Positions 21,446-32,910 of a stretch of 64,000 nucleotides of DNA are shown in pieces. This stretch comes from Candidatus Woesearchaeota archaeon (GTDB lineage Archaea > Nanobdellota > Nanobdellia > Woesearchaeales > GW2011-AR9), in NCBI GenBank assembly GCA_018696595.1, contig JABHQW010000001.1:1-64000 (forward strand), given 5' to 3'. The notes beneath the pieces are model-generated. The model did not search any database. It saw only the letters and a program-made list of their open reading frames with translations, and was not told where the DNA came from. Every line of letters begins with the position of its first letter. Position 1 is the first letter of the stretch. The translations under genes were made by a program, and so were the position numbers.

Positions 21446-21691
21446 TTATTCATTCTTCCAATTCTTAATCACATTGTACGGCCACTTTGATTGTAGTTCT
21501 TCCATCAATTCACGGTAATGTGTTATAACCCCACAATCATTGCACGCATATTCGTAACGAAAATTATATTCTCCTGATTCGTTTCTTTTCTGCCCTAGAT
21601 ATTCAATGTTACCCTCACATTCACGACAACTAAGATCGTAAAATGTAGGAAAATCAATCAATTGTTGCTCAAATTTTTTGTCAAGAGTCAT
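21446..21691 (-). CDS. Small zinc-ribbon protein
   Basis: CRECE ... CNDCG. Confidence 0.65.
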   Translation of the reverse strand: MTLDKKFEQQLIDFPTFYDLSCRECEGNIEYLGQKRNESGEYNFRYEYACNDCGVITHYRELMEELQSKWPYNVIKNWKNE

Positions 21692-21694
21692 TTT

Positions 21695-21705
21695 CCTTTA
21701 GCGAG
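21695..21705 (-). promoter_or_regulatory. CTCGCTAAAGG motif, copy 3, fused to SD
   Basis: AAACTCGCTAAAGGAAA-ATG; TTGTC/GACAA inverted repeat at 21712-21731 upstream. Confidence 0.75.
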
Positions 21706-21740
21706 TTTAAATTGTCCTGCCATATTGACAAGACCATTCT

Positions 21741-22625
21741 TTACATTCTACATTCTTCAAAATGGTCATCAATATTCATTATCACATAATCAGTAATTTC
21801 ACAAATAATTTTTGAGTCCATAGCGATAGCTAGTCCTGAATTCTCCCGATGAAAAGGGCCACCAGCATTGTGAATTAAGTAAGCGCTGATGATTCCAGCC
21901 CAATACAATTGATCGTCTTTTTTAACAAAGAGAGCCCCACCAGAATTTCCAGGGTTAGCAGTGAGATCCAATATCTTTCTTGAAGAGTTTGGTACAGTAA
22001 TACCATTTACTTTATCTTCAAATTCATAATGAAACGGATAGTTACCCGGATTAGCGACTATACCTCCCGTAGTTGCAGGAAACATTCCTAAAGGATATCC
22101 GACCAGATAAACTTCTTCACCATACCTTAGATCTGAACTTAGTTGAAGATTATTCTCGGGAAGAAAGTTTAGTCTTTGATCCGTTCTTAGAATGGCTAAG
22201 TCCAATTCCTCAGATTCAAAAACAATTTCTAAAGGGATGTCATCATCTTTATTATTGTCAAACTTCGAATCAATAATTTTAATATCAACTTTAGTTCGAT
22301 CATATTTAGTTCCATTAACGTTCTGTTCAAAACCCCCAACAACATGTTGATTAGTAATTAAGTAAGAGTAACCATCAACGTCACGATAAGCAAAACTAGA
22401 ACCATATCCTCCGGCGTTGAATGTGTTTCCAGCCTGATCCTGATATTCTCTTTCTGAAAGTAAACAGTATGTGGAAGAGATTAAATCATCTAATGTAACT
22501 TCTTTTTCTGAGATTTCATGAGTGGCGCCATAGTTATTAATGGGAACATGTTGCATTGGCACACAAGCTGTTCCTGTTCCCACCAATAATGTTGCGGCTG
22601 CAATTAAGTTAACAAGTTTATTCAT
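21741..22625 (-). CDS. Trypsin-like serine protease, secreted/lipoprotein
   Basis: Catalytic triad TNQHVV, LDLAIL, PGNSGG; signal peptide ending TAC. Confidence 0.9.
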   Translation of the reverse strand: MNKLVNLIAAATLLVGTGTACVPMQHVPINNYGATHEISEKEVTLDDLISSTYCLLSEREYQDQAGNTFNAGGYGSSFAYRDVDGYSYLITNQHVVGGFEQNVNGTKYDRTKVDIKIIDSKFDNNKDDDIPLEIVFESEELDLAILRTDQRLNFLPENNLQLSSDLRYGEEVYLVGYPLGMFPATTGGIVANPGNYPFHYEFEDKVNGITVPNSSRKILDLTANPGNSGGALFVKKDDQLYWAGIISAYLIHNAGGPFHRENSGLAIAMDSKIICEITDYVIMNIDDHFEECRM

Positions 22626-22633
22626 TCATATCA

Positions 22634-22644
22634 CCTTTAGCGAG
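22634..22644 (-). promoter_or_regulatory. CTCGCTAAAGG motif, copy 4, fused to SD
   Basis: AAACTCGCTAAAGGTGATATGA-ATG. Confidence 0.75.
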
Positions 22645-22656
22645 TTTTTTTGATTC

Positions 22657-22765
22657 TCAAAAATGGAAATGGTTTGTATACGGGGCACGGCGGACATCGT
22701 ACTCCCTTAGAGTACCCGCCTCAGCAAGCTAGGGCCCCCGTATACAACTAACACCCATTTTTTGA
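22657..22765 (-). ncRNA. Structured intergenic element E1 (candidate ncRNA / cis-element)
   Basis: Nested helices AAAAATGG/CCATTTTT, TTGTATACGGGG/CCCCGTATACAA, GGCGG/CCGCC, GTACTC/GAGTAC; GC-rich in AT-rich DNA; strand inferred from similarity to E2. Confidence 0.6.
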
Positions 22766-22803
22766 TTTGATTTTAATGGTGGATTAACATCCAAACTTTA
22801 GTT

Positions 22804-23322
22804 TTAATCAGTTTCATTCTTATTCAGGATCCCCACCAGTCCACGGTATTGTGGATCATCGTTTTCTTTTTTTGAACGTAAAATGTTGGAGAGGGTGGAA
22901 GAATAACAAGCAGTAGCTAAACCGGCCATAACTGTGCCCATCTGATTATCACCAAGAAAATAATATCCTGCTGAAAGACAAGCCGCCAGTGTTCCGGCTA
23001 CTGGTTGAAACTTCTTGATAACTTCCACGGAATCTTGGTTAGAATATCTGTCACCCATAATTGCACTCATTCCGGAAACAGCTAAACCCAATCCCAAAAA
23101 AATGTTGTAGGGAAAAGTTTCACAGGCAGCTAAAGCAACTGTAAATCCCCCAGCAGCAGCAAGATCTGAATAGACTGCTAATCGTTCATACTTTCTATCT
23201 TGGACAGCTGTAATTTCTTCTAAGGAAACAAGCTCCTCTTTTTTATCTGGTTTTTCTTTCCACCCCAATTTCCAAATAGAACTTCCCCTTTTAGCGAGAT
23301 TTTGATGAGGAAGCACCCTCAT
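22804..23322 (-). CDS. Hypothetical membrane protein
   Basis: Two pairs of hydrophobic segments; start uncertain because the ATG lies within the hairpin at 23305-23322. Confidence 0.65.
   Translation of the reverse strand: MRVLPHQNLAKRGSSIWKLGWKEKPDKKEELVSLEEITAVQDRKYERLAVYSDLAAAGGFTVALAACETFPYNIFLGLGLAVSGMSAIMGDRYSNQDSVEVIKKFQPVAGTLAACLSAGYYFLGDNQMGTVMAGLATACYSSTLSNILRSKKENDDPQYRGLVGILNKNETD
23287..23298 (-). promoter_or_regulatory. CTCGCTAAAAGG motif, copy 5
   Basis: Preceded by perfect hairpin ATGAGG-N6-CCTCAT; lies inside the 5' end of the predicted ORF. Confidence 0.6.
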
Positions 23323-23508
23323 TTTTTTTGTTTACACTTCTGACTTACATTAATGTGAATAGTGTAATATAATGATAAACATGTCGAGAAGATTTTTTAT
23401 CGATTTGCAGTTTTAAGTTTGAGAAAGTTTTGCTAGAATAATTCTTAGTTATAAAATGCTAAACATAATTGAGAAAAAAGTTTCTTAATAAAATGAAAGA
23501 AAAAAATA

Positions 23509-24270
23509 CTAATTTTTTACAAAGATATATCTGTCAGCTACTCTTCTATCAGGCATACCTTCTCGCATTACTTCTCTATATGCTGCCCATTTTTTTTCAA
23601 ATGAATCATTTGGATCTGCTCTTAGAACACCTTGATCAACATACGAAAGAACTAGATCCCTAGTAAATTTAAATTCAGTTGGTTTTAGTCTTTCAAATTC
23701 AGCAGCGTCTTTCATAGGTTGAAATAAATCTTCTAAATTTCTAGAAACGACAACCCTATTATCATTCTTTCTTCGATCTTTTTCAACAAAATCTATTGAT
23801 CCCCATAAGGTAAACTGGTTAGGTTGTTCGTACATTTCAGATGCATTCCCGTGATAATCATTTGCCAAAATATATCCTCCAGGTTTTAAATGTCTAGAAG
23901 CCCATTCTGTTGGAATTGCCGGATTTAATAAAATCAATAAATCATGTAAATCTTGAGGAGAATATGTTTTAATATCTTGCTTTAATGCTTGAAATCCTGC
24001 TTCTTGAAGTTTTTTTACACAACCTTCACTTCCTTTCTCAATGTCTACAAAGGTAACATCATCAAAAACTTTTACAGGACTTGCATCAAATCCACAAGAA
24101 GGATATAAAACAGATTGAGGATTAAAAACTTGATTACAAAAAGCAGTATATATTGTTATCAGATCATCTGAAAAGTATATTTGAGGTTCTTCTCTAGGGG
24201 TATCATCATTATCTGCAGGAAATTCAAAATCATCTGGAAATCCTTCAAAGTCATCATTATTATCTGTCAT
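23509..24270 (-). CDS. Hypothetical protein with class I SAM-methyltransferase-like core
   Basis: VLYPSCGFD, TFVDIE, DLLILLNP, LKPGGYILA. Confidence 0.5.
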   Translation of the reverse strand: MTDNNDDFEGFPDDFEFPADNDDTPREEPQIYFSDDLITIYTAFCNQVFNPQSVLYPSCGFDASPVKVFDDVTFVDIEKGSEGCVKKLQEAGFQALKQDIKTYSPQDLHDLLILLNPAIPTEWASRHLKPGGYILANDYHGNASEMYEQPNQFTLWGSIDFVEKDRRKNDNRVVVSRNLEDLFQPMKDAAEFERLKPTEFKFTRDLVLSYVDQGVLRADPNDSFEKKWAAYREVMREGMPDRRVADRYIFVKN

Positions 24271-24417
24271 GTTAGTGTTTGATTTTATTGCCTTTATAAA
24301 TTTTGTGGTCGTTACTACTCTCTTGTGAATATTAACTAAGCAGTCATTTCATAATACCACTAAGTTGACAATTTTTAAACCAAAAATCTTAAAAAACAAT
24401 CTGGTAAAAGTACAACT

Positions 24418-24879
24418 ATGACAAATAACTTAACACCGCTCTGCCAAATCAACGGCGGATGTATGGGCTGCTGTGGGCATGACTTCATCTCTAGAGAAAA
24501 AATCAAAGAAGCGATTAGATTGAACACCTTAGAATTTGAAAACAAAAGCCCCAGAGTTAAAGCACAGTTTCTTGCATTTAGAGATCGTGAACACCCCTCT
24601 AACTTAAGACACGGAGTTTGTAGAAATCTGATTGAAAAGAATGGGAATATTTTTTGTCCATTACATCCAACCCTACACAATTCAGATTTAAGAGAAAATC
24701 ATTGTGATATCAAGCATCTTTGTGGTACTGCTAAGAAGTATGCTGAATGGGATAAAGAGAAACAAGAAAAGTTTTTAGAGTTTGTTAAAAGTAAAAATAT
24801 TGATAATCTGGAATATTCTATGCAGATGGATAACGGAACTTTGTTAGAGGAATTCGAGAGATTATTCTTTTCTTTCTAA
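24418..24879 (+). CDS. Cys-rich hypothetical protein (YkgJ/CxxCxxCC-like)
   Basis: GCMGCCG, CRNL, CPLHP, HCD..HLC. Confidence 0.6.
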   Translation: MTNNLTPLCQINGGCMGCCGHDFISREKIKEAIRLNTLEFENKSPRVKAQFLAFRDREHPSNLRHGVCRNLIEKNGNIFCPLHPTLHNSDLRENHCDIKHLCGTAKKYAEWDKEKQEKFLEFVKSKNIDNLEYSMQMDNGTLLEEFERLFFSF

Positions 24880-25347
24880 TTTTTTCGTGGGGCTGAATGA
24901 GCTTGTGAATGAACGCCGTACATCGCTCCCAGTTCGCGAAAGAACTGTTAGAGGAATTTGAAAGTCAAACTTTCTAAGTAAGATTAAAGAGATAATTATT
25001 ACTGCCACCGAAAACATCAATCCAAATATTAATAAGAAATTCCAAATCCAAGAAGAAGTGGTTTCTGTTAATACTAAAATCAAACTAATGATAAAAATAA
25101 TTGATTGAGTTATTAAATAAAAATAAGGCAAAGCATGTGCCAGGTCATCAACTCTATGATGGTGGAAAAAAGAAATTGCTTGAATATTAAATACATAGAA
25201 TAGAATTATCAAAACAATCATTCCGTGAGTTAACAGATTATCTACTCGAAACAATCCCAATAAATTATCAAGAATTCCTAAGATACCAAAGGTTAGGGCT
25301 AAGTATAAATAGATTCTAAGGAAACCTCTTTTTGATGTTGTTGCCAA
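24862..25347 (-). CDS. Hypothetical four-TM membrane protein
   Basis: Hydrophobic segments; TTG start with GAGGT SD. Confidence 0.7.
   Translation of the reverse strand: MATTSKRGFLRIYLYLALTFGILGILDNLLGLFRVDNLLTHGMIVLIILFYVFNIQAISFFHHHRVDDLAHALPYFYLITQSIIFIISLILVLTETTSSWIWNFLLIFGLMFSVAVIIISLILLRKFDFQIPLTVLSRTGSDVRRSFTSSFSPTKKLERKE
24915..24955 (+). repeat. Copy of the rpl7ae 5'-leader hairpin element
   Basis: TCGCTCCCAGTTCGCGAAA (19 nt exact) + N + AACTG..AGAGGA shared with 40801-40839 (minus strand). Confidence 0.8.
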
Positions 25348-25431
25348 ACGTTAATACCTCACTACGAGTTCAAAAAGACGCCAAAAATTTATAAAATTTT
25401 TATTGTCTTTTTTGATGTCATGATAATAAAG

Positions 25432-25659
25432 TGGGCCTACAGGGACTTTCAAATCTCCAGGAAGATTTGTAGTCTCCTAAAGGATATTTGAACCCTGATC
25501 AACCGGTATCAACCCAAACTCTTCTTAAATAATTTGACTGCAGGGAAAATCCTGTTTTGATCAAACTTTTTTTAAAAATTTGGTCCGAAGCCGGCCGCAC
25601 TTTTTGGCTAGCGCCTAAACTTTGTCTGACGCCAAGTATCCAGGTTATGCTATAGGCCC
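25432..25659 (-). tRNA. tRNA-Arg(TCG) with three introns: D-loop (25601-25636, 36 nt), anticodon loop 37/38 (25508-25584, 77 nt), T-loop ~59/60 (25446-25486, 41 nt)
   Basis: Removing the three segments leaves a 74-nt cloverleaf: GGGCCTA/TAGGCCC, GCAT/GTGC, GCCGG-CTTCGGA-CCGGT, CAGGG-TTCAAAT-CCCTG; splice sites may be off by 1 nt. Confidence 0.9.
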
Positions 25660-25703
25660 ACAATAAAAGGATAAAAGAAGAAGGTATTTTTAAAGTTATT
25701 GTC

Positions 25704-26354
25704 TTATTCAGTAATGTGTGGATTTCTTAACTGATAAAACTTGTGTTCTTCATGTTTGATCACTCCATTTAAATAACCTATTTCAACCAATCCATCACAA
25801 ACTTTTTCTAAACATTCTAAGGGAAGACGTTCATCAAAAGAAAATAAAGTTTCAACAGGAAAACCCGATTGTTCATCTCCATTTAAAATAGAATGGGGAA
25901 TGTTTTCTTCAACCAACTTTTGCACATAAACAGATCTCATAATAGATTCAACTTTAGTCCAAAAAAGAGCCCCATTTTTCCAAAGTACCTTACAACCTGT
26001 TCTATCAGCAACTTGACGGTCACGAGGAGAAATATTTCCAGTAATATATCTAAAATTTATTTGTCTTTCATTTTTACGAAATAAAACCCCCATTTGTTCA
26101 GGAGCTAAAGATTCTGTACTACCTTCTTCTAAATAACCAGAAGCGTCAGGAAGCCTCATGTCTGAAAATCCCCCCCTAGGGAAATTTCCTGTCGAGGATA
26201 AGTAAAGTAAAGCGTCTTTTCCTTTAGTAAAAGATTTATAAGATAATTCTAATAAATCGGCTTTTGCTTCTAATAATTCCAAGATACATTCCTGATCGTC
26301 CAAAAACATTAAATCAATTCCTCTCCTAGCCATGTTTCTATTATGAAGTGACAA
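25704..26354 (-). CDS. Response-regulator receiver domain protein with C-terminal wHTH-like region
   Basis: FLDD, FSDMRLP (phospho-acceptor Asp), YITG, LWK; likely start ATG 26333. Confidence 0.6.
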   Translation of the reverse strand: MSLHNRNMARRGIDLMFLDDQECILELLEAKADLLELSYKSFTKGKDALLYLSSTGNFPRGGFSDMRLPDASGYLEEGSTESLAPEQMGVLFRKNERQINFRYITGNISPRDRQVADRTGCKVLWKNGALFWTKVESIMRSVYVQKLVEENIPHSILNGDEQSGFPVETLFSFDERLPLECLEKVCDGLVEIGYLNGVIKHEEHKFYQLRNPHITE

Positions 26355-26416
26355 TTGATATTTAAATGTTTCCAGCCAAAAAGTTAATAAATGAAGTAAA
26401 TAAAAGTAGGATTATT

Positions 26417-26571
26417 GCCCCGGTGGCCTAGTGGCTATGGCACCTGACTTGTAGCCAACTATCTACTATGTTTACAATAGTAAAGAAAGCATGGTAAGAT
26501 ATCAGGAGATCGCGAGTTCAACTTCCGTTAGGGAGTTACAATCCCATGGATTGAAAGTCTCGCTCGGGGCT
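26417..26571 (+). tRNA. tRNA-Thr(TGT) with anticodon-loop intron (26454-26500, 47 nt) and T-loop intron (~26523-26557, 35 nt)
   Basis: Spliced 73-nt cloverleaf: GCCCCGG/TCGGGGC, CCTGA-CTTGTAA-TCAGG, GCGAG/CTCGC. Confidence 0.9.
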
Positions 26572-26600
26572 CTTTTTTCTTTTGTTACTCTAAAGTAATG

Positions 26601-26622
26601 AAATAAACGAAAGATTTATAAA
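26601..26622 (+). promoter_or_regulatory. BRE-TATA promoter AAATAAACGAAAGATTTATAAA
   Basis: Archaeal BRE+TATA consensus; 21/22 identical to 31859-31880. Confidence 0.7.
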
Positions 26623-26672
26623 TCAAATTTGTTTCTAGATCATATCACACTAATTATGAGGAAAATAATAAA

Positions 26673-27155
26673 ATGACAGATACAGGAATGGAATTAACAC
26701 AATCGCATGAACATGCATTAGAAACTGCAGTTCACCAATTTGGAATTGATTTAGTACCAATTGGTAGAGCTTATATAGATAGTTTAAATCACGAAGATTT
26801 TAGAGAAAGCGGAGTTTATGTTCTTTTTAGACCATTAGATGTAAATCCAGAATTGGGAGATTATAAAGAAAGGTTAGAAATGCTTACTAGAACTTATCTT
26901 CCTGGAGCTACAGAAGAATTTTTACAATTAGAAACTGATCGAAGAGAACTTTCTACTCAGTTAACTACAAGTAGAATGGGACTTAATAAACGAGAAATTG
27001 CTGATTATGAAAAAAGATTTCCTTTAGGTAAAAGCCGAGGTTATGAAGTTTTTGTAAAAGGCGGAAGAGGAAGTATTGACGTTTTAGCATTAAGAGAAAC
27101 TAATACTATCCACACAGCAGAAATGAAAGATCATGATTTAGTTCCTTACGAATAG
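26673..27155 (+). CDS. Hypothetical protein
   Basis: 160-aa ORF after promoter and GAGG SD. Confidence 0.7.
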   Translation: MTDTGMELTQSHEHALETAVHQFGIDLVPIGRAYIDSLNHEDFRESGVYVLFRPLDVNPELGDYKERLEMLTRTYLPGATEEFLQLETDRRELSTQLTTSRMGLNKREIADYEKRFPLGKSRGYEVFVKGGRGSIDVLALRETNTIHTAEMKDHDLVPYE

Positions 27156-27167
27156 AGGTAAAATAAA

Positions 27168-27407
27168 ATGAGAAGAATGATTACTGATAAAAAGCGTGAA
27201 GAAGATTTAGCTAATGAAGTTATAGAAGATTTGGAACATTGGACAAATCCATATAATGGTGCAGTTAATTCAAGTACAACTTATCAACAACTAGGCGTTG
27301 GATTTTTTGCTGCTGAACCAGACTCACAAGAATTATTGGATCAAGGATTTAATAATCGTGTTGATGGCTCATATTTTAGAAATAATCGAATTGAAGAGGA
27401 TGAATAA
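27168..27407 (+). CDS. Hypothetical acidic protein
   Basis: 79 aa, GAGGT SD. Confidence 0.6.
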   Translation: MRRMITDKKREEDLANEVIEDLEHWTNPYNGAVNSSTTYQQLGVGFFAAEPDSQELLDQGFNNRVDGSYFRNNRIEEDE

Positions 27408-27408
27408 A

Positions 27409-27843
27409 ATGAAAATATTAGAAAAAATTGTTAATGCAGGAAAATACATTGCAGGAACCGCTAGTCTTTTAGCTATGGCCAGCGGATGTGCAACTACTAC
27501 AACTTATGATGTAAACCAATTCTGTGGAAAAATGCCATTTCAAGATGGAACAGTAAAAGAAGCCGTAAAGAGAGTTGATGACCGAGGTATTGAGATATCA
27601 TATTTAAGAGTAGAAAATGATTCAGAAATATTTGAAAAGATGGATTATGATGGAGATGGATTTTCTGAAACTCAAGTTTATAGGAAAACTCACTCAGATG
27701 GTTCAAAAACTTTTGTAAGATGTGCAAATGATGAAGGAGTTTTGAATGGTCAAGTAACAAAAAAAGGAGCTTGGACTTTAAGTCAAACTGAAAAGAATGC
27801 CGCAGGAGAAATAGTTAAAGAAGATTATCAAATTGCTAGATAA
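27409..27843 (+). CDS. Putative lipoprotein
   Basis: Start reassigned to ATG 27409; signal peptide with ASGC lipobox. Confidence 0.65.
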   Translation: MKILEKIVNAGKYIAGTASLLAMASGCATTTTYDVNQFCGKMPFQDGTVKEAVKRVDDRGIEISYLRVENDSEIFEKMDYDGDGFSETQVYRKTHSDGSKTFVRCANDEGVLNGQVTKKGAWTLSQTEKNAAGEIVKEDYQIAR

Positions 27844-28027
27844 AATGACAGGAATCAAATACCAAAAACCAGTACTTGAAACAAGACCATTATTTGAACC
27901 TTCTGGGCAAGTTGATTTAGATGCTTTTTATATTGCGGCGAAAGTTATTGATGAAAAGAAATATGTTAAGATGTATCAAAGAGAATTAAAAGCAGTAATG
28001 GCAGATAAATTAAATAAAGAGGAATAA
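27833..28027 (+). CDS. Hypothetical protein
   Basis: 64 aa, tightly packed in the operon. Confidence 0.55.
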   Translation: MLDKMTGIKYQKPVLETRPLFEPSGQVDLDAFYIAAKVIDEKKYVKMYQRELKAVMADKLNKEE

Positions 28028-28030
28028 AAA

Positions 28031-28672
28031 ATGACATACCAAATACATGATGTTAACACAATAAAAGCTCGCTTCGGAGAATCAGCAGAAGCATTTGAAC
28101 AAGGACTTAATTTTCAACATTCAGATTCAATTTTCTTGAGAGTAAAACAAAGGTCAGTAAATCCAGAAGAGATGGACTGTAGTTTAGAAGGAATGGACTT
28201 ACTAATCTCTGGAAACCATTATGAAGCAGAAGAGGGTGAACTTGTTGAGTTAGATTATGAGAATGAAACTTGGCACAAACCAGTTCAAGGGCAGAAAGTA
28301 GAAGTTCCTTTTAAGGGTACAGTACAAGTAACCCATCTTGGAGAAGATTCTGTTCGTCCCCCATTTCAGATAAAGGAAGGAGAATTTGATTATAGTAAAA
28401 CCACATTTTTATTTCAAAGAGAAGATTGCCCTGATTTATATTTCTTAGGAGACTCTTTGAGAGGAGCTTACGGAACAGTTGGCTTAAGTCAAGAAATTGT
28501 GGATGAATTAAGTAAAGAAAATGCATTATACAAAGTTCTTACAGAAGAACCAATAACATTAGGCCCAAAACAAACATTAATAGTGCCTCACGAAGGAATT
28601 GTTAGAGTTAGTTTAGAAGCAAGATTAAATGATCCAGATAAAGAAGTTGTTGTTAAAGGTTCAGGGATTTAA
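28031..28672 (+). CDS. Hypothetical acidic protein
   Basis: 213 aa, GAGG SD. Confidence 0.7.
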   Translation: MTYQIHDVNTIKARFGESAEAFEQGLNFQHSDSIFLRVKQRSVNPEEMDCSLEGMDLLISGNHYEAEEGELVELDYENETWHKPVQGQKVEVPFKGTVQVTHLGEDSVRPPFQIKEGEFDYSKTTFLFQREDCPDLYFLGDSLRGAYGTVGLSQEIVDELSKENALYKVLTEEPITLGPKQTLIVPHEGIVRVSLEARLNDPDKEVVVKGSGI

Positions 28673-28776
28673 TTTTAATTTTCTTTCTCTTTTTTTCCGC
28701 AATATTTATATATATAACAACTATTTTCAACATAAAATAATGATAGATGTGATAAAGCATTCTGAAGGTGTTTAAT

Positions 28777-29412
28777 ATGAATGAACAATTAAAAACTGGT
28801 ACTACTACGGTAGGAATTGTATGTAAAGACGGAATTGTTTTAGCGGCTGATAAAAGAGCAACCGCAGGAACAATGATCGTGGACAAAAGAGCAGACAAAG
28901 TACACATAATCAATGACGATTTTGCTGTAACTTGGGCTGGGACTGTTTCAGATGCGCAATTAGTAACTAAGTTACTAAAAGCAGAACTAAAACTGAAAGA
29001 AGTTAAAACTAACAAAAGACCAACTGCAAAAGAAGCAGCTAATTTATTGGGTGGATTATTATATTCAAGTATTAGAAGGCCAAGCATGATTCCAAGCATT
29101 GCTCATTTTTTGATGGGTGGAAAAGATACAAGTGGGATTCATCTTTACGATTTATTCCCTGATGGCAGTGTAACAAAAATAACCGACTTTGTATCTTCGG
29201 GATCTGGAAGTGTATTCGCTTTAGGAGTATTAGAAACACAATACACTCAAGATATGACTACAGAGAAAGGTGTTGAATTAGTAGTAAAAGCTATCAATAC
29301 CGCCTTACAGAGGGATTCCTGTTCTGGAAACGGAATTGACGTAGTTGTAGTTAAGATGGAAGACATCAAGAAGGTGATGCACAAAGAAATAAGTTACAGT
29401 TTATTAAATTAA
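28777..29412 (+). CDS. psmB: Proteasome subunit beta
   Basis: KTG/TTTVG processing site, AADKRAT, SGSG; ATG 28777 after GAAGGTG. Confidence 0.97.
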   Translation: MNEQLKTGTTTVGIVCKDGIVLAADKRATAGTMIVDKRADKVHIINDDFAVTWAGTVSDAQLVTKLLKAELKLKEVKTNKRPTAKEAANLLGGLLYSSIRRPSMIPSIAHFLMGGKDTSGIHLYDLFPDGSVTKITDFVSSGSGSVFALGVLETQYTQDMTTEKGVELVVKAINTALQRDSCSGNGIDVVVVKMEDIKKVMHKEISYSLLN

Positions 29413-29604
29413 ATTTTATCTTCATAAAAAGGCGCAAGTGCTTTTTTATGACTTTTTTCATATTCACTTTAAATATTCTTAAAAGAATTAAACAATGAGG
29501 ACCCAATAAAATAAGGGTAAAATAAAACAAAAATGGCAGACATAAAGAAAAATTTTCAATTTTTAAATGTCGGCCATTTGGAAAATAAATAAAAGGAAAA
29601 TAAA

Positions 29605-31494
29605 ATGGCAGATATATTAAAAGAAATTATTAAAGTACTACCACACAATAAAATATCAGATGCAGCTTATGAAGCAGCAAACATCGTACTTTACACTAAA
29701 GATAAAGATTACTTCTTAGACAATAAAGGAACAATCAGAGAAGCAGTTAAACAATTCAAAAAAAGAATTGAACTTAGACCAGACCCATCAATGTGTATGG
29801 AAATGGAAAAAGCAGAAAAACTAATCAAAACACTAATTCCAAAAGAAGCAGGAGCACAAAATTTCATTTTTGATGCACCAAGATCACAATTAATTATTCA
29901 TGCTGATAAACCAGGCGTAGTTATTGGAAAACAAGGAGAAATTCTGAAAGGTATTAAAGAAAAAACAATGTGGGTACCATTAATTAAAAGAAACCCACCA
30001 ATAAGATCAAAACTAATTGAAAGTATTCGTTCAGTATTATATGAAAACGCTGATTATAGAAAAAAGTTCTTAGATAAAACCGGTCATCGAGTTTATGATG
30101 GTTGGTTAAGAGAAAAAAAACACGAATGGGTAAGATTAAGTTTCTTAGGAGCAGCAAGACAAGTAGGAAGAGCTTGCTTATTATTACAAACACCAGAATC
30201 AAGAATAATTATGGATTGTGGGATTGATCCCAGTCAAGATGGACCAGAATCTTATCCTTACTTAGATGCACCAGAATTTAACATTGATGAAATTGATGCA
30301 GTTATTGTAACACATTCACATTTAGACCATAGTGGTTTAATTCCTTACTTGTTTAAGTATGGATATAAGGGTCCCGTTTATTGTACCTTGCCAACAAGAG
30401 ATGTAATGTCCTTATTACAGTTAGACATGGTTAAGATTCAAAGAAATGAAGGTAAAGACCCAATTTACACTAGTGAAGAAGTTAGAGACATGGTTTTACA
30501 TACAATCTGCTTAGAGTTTGATGCAGTTACAGATATCACACCGGATGTAAGGATTACTCTTTACAATGCGGGACACATCTTAGGAAGTTCATTGGTTCAT
30601 TTGAATATTGGTAATGGTTTGCATAACATTGTTTTTACTGGCGATTTAAAGTATGGTCGAACAAACGTTCTAGAAGCAGCAAATACTCAATTTCCAAGAG
30701 TAGAAACTTTAATTATGGAATCCACTTATGGTGGAAAAGATAACGTTATGAACGAACAAGAAGCTGATGCATATATGGTTGATGTTGTTAAGAAGACCTT
30801 TGAACGTGGTGGAAAAGTTTTAATGCCCGTTCTTGGAAGTGGAAGAGCACAAGAAGTAATGATTATTGTTGAAAGGTTAATGAGAGAAAAGAAAATCCCT
30901 CAGGTGCCCGTATATTTAGATGGAATGTTATGGGACATCACAGCAATCCATACAGCCTATCCGGAATTCTTAAACAGAAACATTAGGCAACAGATCTTTC
31001 ATAAAGAAAATAATCCGTTCTTATCTGAAATATTTAAAAGAGTAGGATCTAAAAAAGAACGGGACCAGATTATTGCGGAAGAAGGTGCTTGCTTAATTCT
31101 AGCAACATCAGGAATGTTACAGGGCGGACCATCTGTAGAATATTTAAAACATCTGGCAGAAGGTAAAAAACATAGTTTAGTATTTTCTTGTTATCAGCCA
31201 CCTGGAAGTTTAGGACATCGTATTAGGGGTGGAGAAACCGAGATTATGATGAGAGAAAATGGTAAACAGCAAGTTCTTAGAATCAATATGGATGTGCACA
31301 AAGTTGAGATTACTAACCATTCAGATAGAAAGCAATTGATGAACTATGTTAAGAGATGTAACCCAACTCCAAGAAAAGTGATTTTAATGCATGGTGAGAG
31401 TTCTAGATGTCTAGACTTAGCTTCGTCTTTACATAAACAGATGAGAATTGAAACTAATGCACCTAAGAATTTAGAAGTTATTCGAATTAGGTAA
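29605..31494 (+). CDS. Beta-CASP ribonuclease aCPSF1 (FttA)
   Basis: KH-like N-terminus, THSHLDH, AGHILG, ESTYG, HSDR, HGE; synteny with psmB. Confidence 0.97.
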   Translation: MADILKEIIKVLPHNKISDAAYEAANIVLYTKDKDYFLDNKGTIREAVKQFKKRIELRPDPSMCMEMEKAEKLIKTLIPKEAGAQNFIFDAPRSQLIIHADKPGVVIGKQGEILKGIKEKTMWVPLIKRNPPIRSKLIESIRSVLYENADYRKKFLDKTGHRVYDGWLREKKHEWVRLSFLGAARQVGRACLLLQTPESRIIMDCGIDPSQDGPESYPYLDAPEFNIDEIDAVIVTHSHLDHSGLIPYLFKYGYKGPVYCTLPTRDVMSLLQLDMVKIQRNEGKDPIYTSEEVRDMVLHTICLEFDAVTDITPDVRITLYNAGHILGSSLVHLNIGNGLHNIVFTGDLKYGRTNVLEAANTQFPRVETLIMESTYGGKDNVMNEQEADAYMVDVVKKTFERGGKVLMPVLGSGRAQEVMIIVERLMREKKIPQVPVYLDGMLWDITAIHTAYPEFLNRNIRQQIFHKENNPFLSEIFKRVGSKKERDQIIAEEGACLILATSGMLQGGPSVEYLKHLAEGKKHSLVFSCYQPPGSLGHRIRGGETEIMMRENGKQQVLRINMDVHKVEITNHSDRKQLMNYVKRCNPTPRKVILMHGESSRCLDLASSLHKQMRIETNAPKNLEVIRIR

Positions 31495-31626
31495 GTGTTA
31501 GCAATCGCACTACCGCCAATGGAGGCGATTTTCTGAATATGTTCTCAAGATTACTAATACATGAAGCAACGCGAAGTGCTTGAGAACTGAGGAAAATAAT
31601 AAACGCCGTGCCGTAGTGCTATTTTT
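31495..31626 (+). ncRNA. Structured intergenic element E2 (candidate ncRNA)
   Basis: Helices GCACTAC/GTAGTGC, GGCG/CGCC, ATTTTCT/GGAAAAT, GTTCTCAAG/CTTGAGAAC; shares GTGTTAG, GAGGCG and CGCCGTGCC with E1. Confidence 0.6.
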
Positions 31627-31680
31627 TCATTGAATTTTACCTAAACTTTTATAAACCGCTTTATTTCTTTATCTTTTATT

Positions 31681-31832
31681 GCCAGCGTCGCATAATCCGG
31701 TATTGCGCTGGTCTTGAAACCTTTGGTTTTGACCTAATACCAGATAACCAGTTCCTTTTGGAATTCCCGGTTCAAATATCCCCCAGGGAGACTACAAATC
31801 TTCCTGAAGATTTGAAAGTCCGGGCGCTGGCG
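31681..31832 (+). tRNA. tRNA-Ser(TGA) with anticodon-loop intron (31719-31745, 27 nt) and T-loop intron (31777-31818, 42 nt)
   Basis: Spliced 83-nt cloverleaf with long variable arm: GCCAGCG/CGCTGGC, CTGGT-CTTGAAA-ACCAG, CCCGG-TTCAAAT-CCGGG. Confidence 0.92.
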
Positions 31833-31858
31833 CTTTTATTCTTCACTCAATAGTGATA

Positions 31859-31880
31859 AAATAAACGAAAGGTTTATAAA
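31859..31880 (+). promoter_or_regulatory. BRE-TATA promoter AAATAAACGAAAGGTTTATAAA
   Basis: Consensus BRE+TATA just upstream of the Fic gene. Confidence 0.7.
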
Positions 31881-31902
31881 GAGTTAAGTCAACAATAAGA
31901 CT

Positions 31903-32910
31903 ATGTTTACACTACAACCCCAAATTGGTGAAGCTAGAAGAAAAAAAGAAGCAATTCTTAGGAACCCCGAATATTCTAGAAGCAAAAGAACTCAATTTAC
32001 AAACATGCTCCAACTAGAATCTAATGTGAATTCTGCAATTATGGAAATTGCAAGTGGTAGTACTGAAATGGGTGTAACTAAATCTAGTACTGGCGATGTT
32101 GATTCTCCTCATGTATTAAAAAGAAATGTGGAAGATATATGGAAGTGGTTATTAGAAGAAACAGAAGACAAGATATCAATAGACCAACCAAATATTATTG
32201 CTTTAGCAAAAAAATTTAGCCCAATGAATACTAATTTCAATTATCGTCAAGACAGAGTACATATGAAAGGATTACAATATGCGCCACCTAACCCCTTAAA
32301 AGTACCAGAATTAATGGATAGTGTGGAACACCACATCTCATGTCAAGACATTAATCCATTAGAAAGAGCTTTAATAGCACATTTCCATATAACTAGAATC
32401 CAACCTTTTAATGATGGTAATAAAAGAACAGCAAGAATGGTACAAAATTTAATTTTACATAAAAATGATTATGTGCCAATTTTAATTAAAGAAGGAGAAA
32501 GAAGTTTTTATATAGACTTATTAGAATCTGCAATGATAGCCTTTAAAGATCGGACTTCAAGTTTAGCCCCAGGATCAGAATCATGTTTTACTCCTGAATT
32601 ATCTCAACAAGAAAGACAATTCTTTAGCTATTTGGTTGCCAAAGAAGTATCTGCATTAGATGATGTCAAAGATCATTTAGCGAAAAATAGAGAATATTTA
32701 GTTACAATGGGAAGACAAGAACCAGGAGTACTTTACGCAGGTAAAAAATTAATCAAAGGATTTTTCAGAAAAAGAGATTTAAATGGCAGAGTTAAACTAA
32801 ATCAGCAAGAACGTTATTTAAAGATTTTCGGAGATATTAGCAGAGATCAAGTAGAAACAATATTAGATAGCAAACCGGGCCAATACGAACTAAAAACAAT
32901 TACAGACTAA
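31903..32910 (+). CDS. Fic-family protein with variant motif QPFNDGNKRTAR
   Basis: Fic core with His->Gln and GNG->GNK changes. Confidence 0.85.
   Translation: MFTLQPQIGEARRKKEAILRNPEYSRSKRTQFTNMLQLESNVNSAIMEIASGSTEMGVTKSSTGDVDSPHVLKRNVEDIWKWLLEETEDKISIDQPNIIALAKKFSPMNTNFNYRQDRVHMKGLQYAPPNPLKVPELMDSVEHHISCQDINPLERALIAHFHITRIQPFNDGNKRTARMVQNLILHKNDYVPILIKEGERSFYIDLLESAMIAFKDRTSSLAPGSESCFTPELSQQERQFFSYLVAKEVSALDDVKDHLAKNREYLVTMGRQEPGVLYAGKKLIKGFFRKRDLNGRVKLNQQERYLKIFGDISRDQVETILDSKPGQYELKTITD

Follow-up and report, generated by a model that had tools for sequence, protein, structure and literature searches.

The two structured intergenic elements E1 and E2, found in a 64,000-nucleotide stretch of Woesearchaeota DNA (the window), are with a probability of about 85% atypical, old and partly decayed members of a palindromic, non-coding MITE family. 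Among the genomes searched, this family is confined to one marine Woesearchaeota-type family of DPANN archaea. The element's anatomy, mobility and distribution can all be read directly from its copies. An earlier note on this DNA had proposed that E1 and E2 represent a new family of structured RNAs. They do belong together in a family whose conserved, covarying hairpin lies outside Rfam, but they are not a pair of dedicated RNA loci, against which speak the TIRs, the 9-bp TSDs, the empty sites, the nesting and the patchy copy number. The recurring signal of a "new structured RNA" in the host genome and its relatives is hence explained as a transposon family. Ends, a duplication of 9 bp, a model of the core and the range of hosts now define this family, which should prevent false leads and aid the annotation of DPANN genomes with their dense but undescribed MITEs.

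Anatomy of the element

Intact copies are 121–186 bp long and nested copies 300–368 bp, and none of them contains an ORF. Read from the left, an intact element consists of a TIR, a short arm, the closing helix P1, an asymmetric core, a mirror-image arm and the second TIR. Within the family core, a GC clamp leads to the junction loop C-N-A-N-N-G-A, which faces G-U, and then to the 5-bp helix GGCRC/GYGCC; the 3′ strand carries a bulge of 4–6 nt, and the apical stem is variable. TIRs of 12–16 bp starting with GG, together with a 9-bp TSD, were retained in 15 of the 117 copies examined in five genomes, while shifted controls gave the same signature in 1/57 and 4/60 cases. The length of the TSD was 9 bp in all 15 copies, and in 11 of them the duplication was perfect. 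The TIRs fall into two related classes, and the same terminal sequences are seen again in independent copies and in different genomes. Small size, lack of coding sequence, TIRs, a TSD of fixed length and dispersed, polymorphic occurrence in many copies thus identify the element as a MITE.

E1 and E2 as decayed copies

Re-reading of the sequence found E1 and E2 at the sites and with the reads given in the earlier note, and the gene context described there was likewise correct, with E1 in front of a protease gene and E2 between aCPSF1 and tRNA-Ser. Most copies of the family have no clear TIR or TSD; E1 and E2 are counted as members because their core and arms are homologous to those of intact copies.

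The whole long hairpin of E1 (22657–22765, minus strand) was assigned as a decayed MITE copy from its fold and from the corresponding block being empty in a congeneric genome. Its closing helix is of the GUAUAC type, its core is a three-way-junction variant and its outer arms are degenerate. Folding gave a single long hairpin with an MFE of −44.1 kcal/mol (z = −3.66), and none of 200 shuffled sequences was equally stable. The core (22673–22748, minus strand) aligned over its full length to the family covariance model R1 with 15.5 bits and E = 6e-5 (cmsearch with filters off). In this alignment, P1 is formed by pairing of 22737–22745 with 22676–22684 and is followed by a GC/GC clamp, a junction into which a small hairpin is inserted, P2 (GGCGG/CCGCC), P3, a 5-nt 3′ bulge and GU. 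The same core variant is found at C6:219389 and C5:71041 of the host genome and in relatives. Alignment to intact copies showed that the TIR of E1 is degenerate and that the left TIR of E2 is absent; the right arm of E1 aligns to the right arm and TIR of L033, an intact MITE of 121 bp. E1 sits 30–60 nt upstream of the gene, which encodes a trypsin-like protease.

E2 (31495–31626, plus strand) belongs to the long-P3 subtype of the MITE; its left TIR is gone and its right arm is decayed. This assignment is based on a match to R1 at 31502–31624 with 52.3 bits and on the alignment of E2 to the interior of L236, an intact 176-bp copy with a 9-bp TSD. Both halves of the E2 core were read directly and agree with the pairing and covariation of the family. 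The 5′ half (31507–31527, plus strand) comprises P1 (GCACUAC, 31507–31513), an unpaired C, the GC clamp (31515–31516), the junction loop CAAUGGA (31517–31523) and the P2 strand GGCG (31524–31527). The long P3 arm and the 6-nt 3′ bulge behind it (31528–31603, plus strand) were delimited by alignment of the long-P3 copies. The apical module of this arm is related to CGAAACAAAGUGNAGUG and is decayed in E2, as judged from 16 long-P3 copies of four genomes. The 3′ half (31604–31619, plus strand) contains the P2 strand CGCC (31604–31607), GU (31608–31609), the GC clamp (31610–31611), an unpaired C and the P1 strand GUAGUGC (31613–31619). The fold of E2 is weaker than that of E1, with a z of only −1.66, and its centroid contains the closing helix and the inner stem that had been proposed. 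On its 5′ side lies the gene for aCPSF1/FttA (domains Beta-Casp, KH_TffA and RMMBL), whose stop codon (31492–31494) abuts the GTGTTAG of E2, and an intron-bearing tRNA-Ser(UGA) begins about 60 nt downstream.

The two elements had originally been linked by shared motifs. Genome-wide, GTGTTAG...CGCCGTGCC in this order is present only at E1 and E2, and the reversed control is absent. CGCCGTGCC was found five times in 1.19 Mb, always within family copies, whereas we calculate an expectation of about 0.35 from base composition. GTGTTAG is indeed present in both E1 (22748–22754, minus strand) and E2 (31495–31501, plus strand), where it is a left-arm, subterminal motif of the MITE, but it lies outside the conserved fold and is absent from most copies. 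It is restricted to the left arm of one element class, stands 6 nt inside the left TIR of the intact copies L044 and L029, and is counted 100 times genome-wide. The 9-mer described as invariant varies across the family: its consensus is YRCC-GU-GC, with covariation between its first bases and GGYR.

The comparison with Rfam proposed in the earlier note left E1 and E2 without a known family in Rfam 15. Across the window nothing reached the gathering score, and at E ≤ 10 there was no relevant match for E1, E2 and 19 other copies. Only chance matches were obtained (snoZ223, Y RNA, mir-515, HgcG etc.), all of them far under the gathering score.

Copy number, host range and mobility

The genome that hosts E1 and E2 (G000, 1.19 Mb) holds 26 copies, 23 of which were detected by a regular expression and model R1 and three of which are of the E1 type. 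Of 35 genomes in the same Woesearchaeota-type family, 16 yielded about 110 further R1 matches in total; copy number ranges from 0 to 40 per genome. The homologue search by covariance model, which had also been suggested, thus returned many additional copies in the host and its relatives, and none in the 24 other families of the order that were searched. A scan of viral contigs with a 19-nt core word found ten contigs, none of which fits R1. Matches of the class I end 16-mer to the whole collection were nearly all due to chance; one contig carries an inverted pair 182 bp apart.

Filled and empty versions of the same site were observed in five pairs within the genus. The E1 block (about 115 nt at 22655–22770) is missing from the syntenic site of the congeneric genome G001, the copy at C3:344178 is missing from both G001 and a second congeneric genome, G002, and the copies at C3:349851 and C3:292647 are likewise missing in congeneric genomes. 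At G002:C45 the site is filled, and its counterpart on C8 of G000 is empty with a single 9-mer. Copies are also nested, with the inner copy inverted within the P3 stem of the outer one. In G002, the spacer that corresponds to that of E1 contains a copy in the opposite orientation and with a different P3 module, which indicates that this spacer is a hot spot and does not reflect inheritance. No copy was retained at syntenic sites across the genomes compared.

With respect to genes, the copies lie in co-directional spacers (17 sense and 10 antisense), in divergent spacers (19) and in convergent spacers (5), and the neighbouring genes are unrelated. A cis-regulatory RNA such as a riboswitch or leader was rejected on these grounds, as neither position nor orientation is constant. 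Element orientation is independent of GC skew, so that a replication-strand bias was not detected. When the copies were assessed as small-RNA genes, no common promoter was visible and the copies were not kept between congeners. No RNA run containing the organism was found for the 10-kb stretch. Three metatranscriptome runs of one study, compared with positions 21500–32500, gave four partial matches of 33–35 nt that belong to other organisms and say nothing on expression. Three further identities were tried and rejected. A tRNA does not fit, as the copies have no T arm and are called neither by ARAGORN nor by the Rfam tRNA model; in an H/ACA guide the internal loop would be variable, whereas here it is conserved, and E2 has no ACA box; and a BHB intron is at odds with a central helix of 5 bp, bulges of 5–7 nt and two bases opposite the 5′ loop.

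Proposed source of the transposition activity

We propose that a DDE transposase with 9-bp staggered cuts would mobilise the element in trans. The enzyme would most likely be of the IS5 family (IS903-group-like) and less probably of the IS4 family, and it may have been lost from G000, which would make the copies of this genome decaying orphans. A 9-bp TSD fits IS5 (IS903-group)-like or IS4-like transposases and does not fit IS6. In the same order, a 1019-bp IS of the IS5 family (NF033579) has a GGCT... repeat and a 9-bp duplication. IS4-family elements likewise make 9-bp duplications (L089). No dispersed repeat longer than 454 bp, and hence no multicopy IS, was found in G000. PF01609 transposases are missing from G000, G001, G002, G021 and G022, which include genomes with intact copies. 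Among the loci examined there was no autonomous IS with matching ends, and the PF01609 loci have no such ends. In G014:C12, two inverted class II end motifs spaced 1.06 kb apart proved to lie in ordinary coding DNA and do not mark the parent IS. Orphan MITEs are common, and the missing autonomous partner therefore does not exclude membership in a MITE family.

Two other sources of mobility were considered. Derivation from IS6 would agree with TIRs that start with GG and with elements of MITE size, and yet every well-preserved copy carries a 9-bp duplication, whereas IS6 family members generate 8-bp repeats (PMC7986276); we regard this origin as highly improbable. A REP/RAYT-like hairpin, or one of the IS200/IS605 type, that a Y1 (HUH) transposase moves in single-stranded form would account for conserved asymmetric loops within variable stems, for the strand-specific tolerance of G·T and for the fact that most copies have no visible ends. 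However, elements of this class do not make the TIRs and 9-bp duplications that the intact copies possess. Y1_Tnp (PF01797) was not found in G000, TnpB was not found, and Y1 does not track the element, given that the element occurs in 3 of the 11 genomes with Y1, and 13 genomes with the element have no Y1. This makes such a hairpin just as hard to credit. A Y1 gene located 1.4 kb from the G021:C34 copy adjoins a 418-aa ORF without a Pfam match and shows no IS605-like layout.

The conserved centre of the hairpin

In the family fold, 92% of cells are paired and double changes occur at 17 of 24 pairs, a level reached by none of 500 shuffles; in the comparison of genomes, four of the five P2 pairs show covariation. 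Within the helices, read on the core strand, G·U cells outnumber A·C cells by 53:20 (about 2.5 to 1), or by 47:19 once shared contexts are merged (p about 8e-4). Mean folding stability is 0.9 kcal/mol greater for the sense strand, which is the more stable one in 64 copies versus 41. An excess of G·U over A·C is not predicted for a purely double-stranded DNA element. Outward ungapped extension of P1 yielded too few cells to be added to the G·U and A·C count. The centre is better conserved than the ends and common to the two TIR classes, although copies were found through the core and its conservation is in part ascertainment. This is not the picture given by ordinary MITEs.

These features suggest that the centre may owe its conservation to a role as a folded single strand, most likely RNA co-transcribed with its neighbours, which could serve for instance as a protein-binding or transcript-end element. 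It is possible, although we would not expect it, that the hairpin is a functional RNA module riding on, or captured by, the MITE, either as a small RNP scaffold (e.g. with L7Ae at a K-loop-like apex) or as an element of transcript ends, processing or stability. Such a module is compatible with the MITE reading and would add a function at the RNA level. The strand asymmetry, the more stable sense strand, the covariation of P2 and the core common to MITE classes with different TIRs all point in this direction. In addition, the motif Y-GA-N7-(U)GA-R occurs in roughly one apex in four, several copies begin ≤10 nt from a stop codon, and one copy lies between a TATA box and a start codon and would be transcribed. 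On the other hand, a conserved promoter at a fixed distance was not seen, gene-relative orientation is nearly random (17:10), no copy is retained at a syntenic site across genomes, and the ascertainment through the core applies here as well. K-turns and K-loops, the sites of L7Ae, have tandem sheared G·A pairs beside a 3-nt bulge or loop. The junction of the family has no G·A pair at the K-turn-defining position: compared at the level of sequence, an A·G is present, but a U stands where the second pair needs an A. A self-cleaving ribozyme or ligand-binding riboswitch, which had been among the initial suggestions, is favoured by the conserved asymmetric junction inside variable helices, the many copies and the lack of an Rfam match. 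It is nevertheless very unlikely, as no such model matched any of 21 copies even at E ≤ 10, copies lie 5′ of, 3′ of and antisense to genes, in either orientation and unlike a cis-regulator, and the same genes in sister genomes are without copies; membership in a known class of either kind found no support. For the MITE itself, we tentatively suggest, while holding it doubtful, that the centre is a strand-specific functional module, probably RNA, that is under purifying selection and common to MITE lineages with different TIRs, and thus a candidate L7Ae-type protein-binding or transcript-end element spread by the MITE.

The wider interest of the family is that a MITE has preserved an asymmetric, covarying hairpin more faithfully than its termini, and that the strand bias of this hairpin suggests RNA folding. 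If this is true, the elements would be a natural system that seeds a structured RNA module beside many genes of a minimal archaeal genome, and the MITE would carry a new structured RNA motif from place to place in the compact genomes of symbiotic archaea.

Comparison with known systems

Like the archaeal MITEs described before (SM1–SM4 of Sulfolobus and those of haloarchaea), the new family is non-autonomous and occupies intergenic archaeal DNA. A high density of MITEs in DPANN is already on record (PMC11602168; PMC10969869), and in a bulk census of 2024 one of the archaeal genomes with the highest MITE density was from Woesearchaea (PMC11602168). That census is a catalogue without anatomy, and in the literature we found no account of this MITE family, its conserved core or its limitation to a single host family.

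The IS903 group of the IS5 family and its MITE derivatives share with the new family a 9-bp duplication and TIRs starting with GGC or GGT, and a duplication of this length is typical of the IS903 group (ISfinder). In this comparison the TSD length fits and the similarity of the ends is only partial; unlike in that group, an IS with the MITE's own ends was not found, nor was PF01609 in genomes with intact copies (carriers G000, G002, G021 and G022).

REP/BIME elements with their RAYT transposases resemble the family in being intergenic hairpins scattered over the genome, with compensatory changes in the stem and with mosaic and nested arrangements, and REP elements can stabilise or end transcripts. 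However, REPs have no TIRs or TSDs and are partnered by a Y1 transposase, whereas the new family has both TIRs and TSDs, and Y1 was not found.

In overall design the family also resembles the Correia/NEMIS elements of Neisseria and similar palindromic bacterial MITEs such as ERIC, RUP and BOX, which are also about 100–200 bp long and non-coding, with inverted ends and target duplications. Elements of the Correia/NEMIS type and the new family both have many intergenic copies, insert into one another and give transcripts, predicted ones in our case, that fold into long hairpins. The functional centre of Correia is an IHF site, and its RNA is processed by RNase III (PMC10969869). In contrast to Correia, the new family is archaeal and duplicates 9 bp where Correia has TA, and its centre is asymmetric, covarying, better conserved than the ends and common to two TIR classes.

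Sequence, fold and gene context of E1 and E2

E1 (22657-22765, minus strand) and E2 (31495-31626, plus strand), two intergenic hairpin elements, were read directly, and their sequences and gene neighbours are exactly as the earlier note gave them. The aCPSF1/FttA gene ends three bases 5′ of E2, which is followed by a tRNA-Ser(UGA) gene with an intron, and a gene for a trypsin-like protease lies 3′ of E1. A Fic/DOC-domain protein is encoded downstream of tRNA-Ser (31903-32910, plus strand). E1 folds into a single long hairpin with an MFE of -44.1 kcal/mol (z -3.66), matched by no shuffle. The whole-element fold of E2 is weaker (z -1.66); the closing helix and inner stem proposed for it are both present in the centroid. 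In the 1.19-Mb source genome the ordered motif pair occurs only at E1 and E2, and a reversed control gave zero. Comparison of both elements with Rfam 15 returned zero matches at the gathering score or at E ≤ 10.

A family of hairpin copies

Relaxing the two G+C-rich motifs revealed 21 copies in the source genome, every one of them between ORFs. They share a common plan, from the outside inwards: a variable closing helix P1; a G-C/C-G clamp; a junction loop C-N-A-N-N-G-A opposite G-U; a 5-bp helix GGCRC/GYGCC (P2); a bulge of 4-6 nt in the 3′ strand; and a variable apical stem (P3). Across 13 canonical copies 92% of this structure is paired, compared with 44-56% in slid controls, and two-sided changes occur at 17 of 24 pairs, a number reached by no shuffle. 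E1 and E2 are both atypical members. E1 is a variant, with three copies in the genome, in which a small hairpin replaces part of the junction loop to give a three-way junction, and E2 carries a conserved module on a long apical arm.

The covariance-model search for homologs that had been proposed did yield further copies. The model R1, built from the 13 canonical copies, matched 23 copies in the source genome, including E2 at 52 bits; E1 scored 15.5 bits with filters off. Within the same taxonomic family, 16 of the 35 genomes searched together gave about 110 further matches; 24 other families of the order, represented by a single genome each, gave zero. Copy number ranges from 0 to 40 per genome, with 40 in one congener and none in another. 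None of 19 further copies matched Rfam.

Transposon ends and worn copies

Searching outward from every core for a 9-bp direct repeat adjoining inverted ends, we found both in 15 of 117 copies (shifted controls, 1/57 and 4/60), and in 11 of the 15 the duplication is perfect. Two related classes of ends can be told apart; both begin with GG and both recur in independent copies and genomes. One accompanies a GUAUAC closing helix; beyond the other, after a gap of six bases, comes GTGTTAG or GTGTTAA. The 5′ GTGTTAG described earlier thus belongs to the left arm of the element and lies outside the fold. An intact element measures 121-186 bp. Elements also nest: four copies in the source genome are composites that spread as units, and R1 matches both strands in the congener G002 (contig C10) because one copy is inverted within the apical stem of another.

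E2 aligns with internal sequence of a 176-bp copy that is intact; the right arm of E2 is decayed, and E2 has no left repeat, GTGTTAG being directly preceded by the stop codon of aCPSF1. E1, whose left end is degenerate, has a right arm about 70% identical to its counterpart in an intact copy of 121 bp. Judged from these alignments, E1 and E2 are most probably worn copies of a transposable element of the miniature inverted-repeat type (MITE). What was proposed as a new ncRNA family is real as a family and forms the central hairpin of a new family of MITEs, with inverted ends, 9-bp duplications and presence/absence variation.

Filled and empty sites in congeneric genomes

The congeneric sister genomes G001 and G002 display clean filled and empty sites. 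At the E1 site in G001 a 115-nt block corresponding to E1 is absent between well-aligned flanks. The copy at C3:344178 of the source genome (G000) is absent from both sisters, where one to five bases remain; the sister genomes likewise lack the two at C3:349851 and C3:292647. Conversely, a 368-bp composite in G002 (contig C45) is absent from G000. In G002 the E1 spacer holds a family member in reverse orientation with a different apical module, and the C3:348585 spacer shows the same pattern. The family members in these two spacers are repeated insertions, not inherited genes.

Three further observations were made at these loci. The G002 spacer syntenic to G000 C3:349800-349980 (contig C87, locus L075 about 1340-1510) has no family copy and contains a different, unrelated palindrome; intergenic hot spots appear to be common to several hairpin-repeat families. 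A segment of about 350 bp adjoining the 368-bp composite is inverted between the congeners (G002 C45, L022 906-1253; G000 C8:50377-50730). Finally, the copy at C3:292647-292725 (L060 10148-10226) is inserted in sense orientation and separates the start codon of the gene that follows from its TATA box. The distance from TATA box to ATG is about 27 nt in G001 and G002, where this gene looks leaderless, so the insertion would equip it with a structured leader about 100 nt long or longer.

Search for a transposase

Duplications of 9 bp are typical of the IS5 family's IS903 group in ISfinder, and those of the MITE are compatible with this group or with the IS4 family. Other families of the order contain a complete IS5-family element of 1019 bp with GGCT... 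ends (G048, L095 1081-2099) and a complete IS4-family element of 1309 bp (G049, L089 785-2093); in both, the 18-bp inverted ends and the 9-bp duplication of the target are perfect. No element bearing the MITE's own ends was found. PF01609 transposases were not detected in G000, G001, G002 or two further genomes (G021 and G022), and G000 has no dispersed repeats longer than 454 bp. Y1 and TnpB genes were not found in G000, and their presence does not track the element. The G000 copies are best seen as orphans. An IS6 origin was excluded, as the IS6 target duplication is 8 bp (PMC7986276) and that of the MITE 9 bp. On G021 contig C34 (L085 263-2113) an IS200-like Y1 transposase gene lies beside a divergent 418-aa ORF with no Pfam match, and a family copy is located 70 nt past this ORF.

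Possible role of the hairpin centre

Several features suggest that the hairpin centre may be important in the form of a folded single strand. The core is common to both end classes, and GGCRC/GYGCC covaries at 4 of 5 pairs across genomes. With the strand fixed by the core's asymmetry, 110 distinct copies have 53 G·U pairs against 20 A·C mismatches, or 47 against 19 once shared contexts are merged, a bias not expected of a purely double-stranded element; the sense strand also has a slightly more stable fold than the antisense. A sequence resembling a K-loop (GA-N7-GA) occurs at about one apex in four; the junction, however, does not have the G·A pair diagnostic of a K-turn. Against a dedicated RNA gene count the near-random orientation to flanking genes (17 copies sense, 10 antisense), the absence of a visible shared promoter among copies and of any copy kept at a syntenic site. 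Moreover, the apparent conservation of the core is inflated, because every copy was found through it. A search of RNA data sets turned up none containing this organism.

tRNA genes and assembly

Two introns interrupt the tRNA-Ser(UGA) gene (31684-31833, plus strand): the first follows the anticodon loop and the second, of 42 nt, lies in the T-loop (31779-31820). At a distance of 6 kb another tRNA gene (about 25432-25655, minus strand) contains a homologous intron in the same T-loop position, and the tRNA-Ser orthologue in G001 has none there. Both genes were missed by ARAGORN as well as by the Rfam tRNA model. In the whole genome ARAGORN called 8 tRNA genes, or 14 with introns allowed, and the Rfam model 16; given a genome completeness of 97%, the majority of its tRNA genes must contain interruptions or be cryptic in some other way. 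Its contig ends share exactly 141 identical bases (C1-C6, C6-C8, C3-C7 and C4-C7), indicating that the assembly is near a closed graph and the contigs can probably be joined.

Comparison with known MITEs

We found no description of this MITE family. The family is new; MITEs as such are already known, and in a 2024 census a Woesearchaea genome was among the archaea with the highest MITE density (PMC11602168). The importance of the finding is modest, and would be greater only if the centre proves to act as RNA. The closest analogues are palindromic bacterial MITEs, above all Correia/NEMIS, which like this family insert into one another, and which fold as RNA and have a functional centre (PMC10969869).
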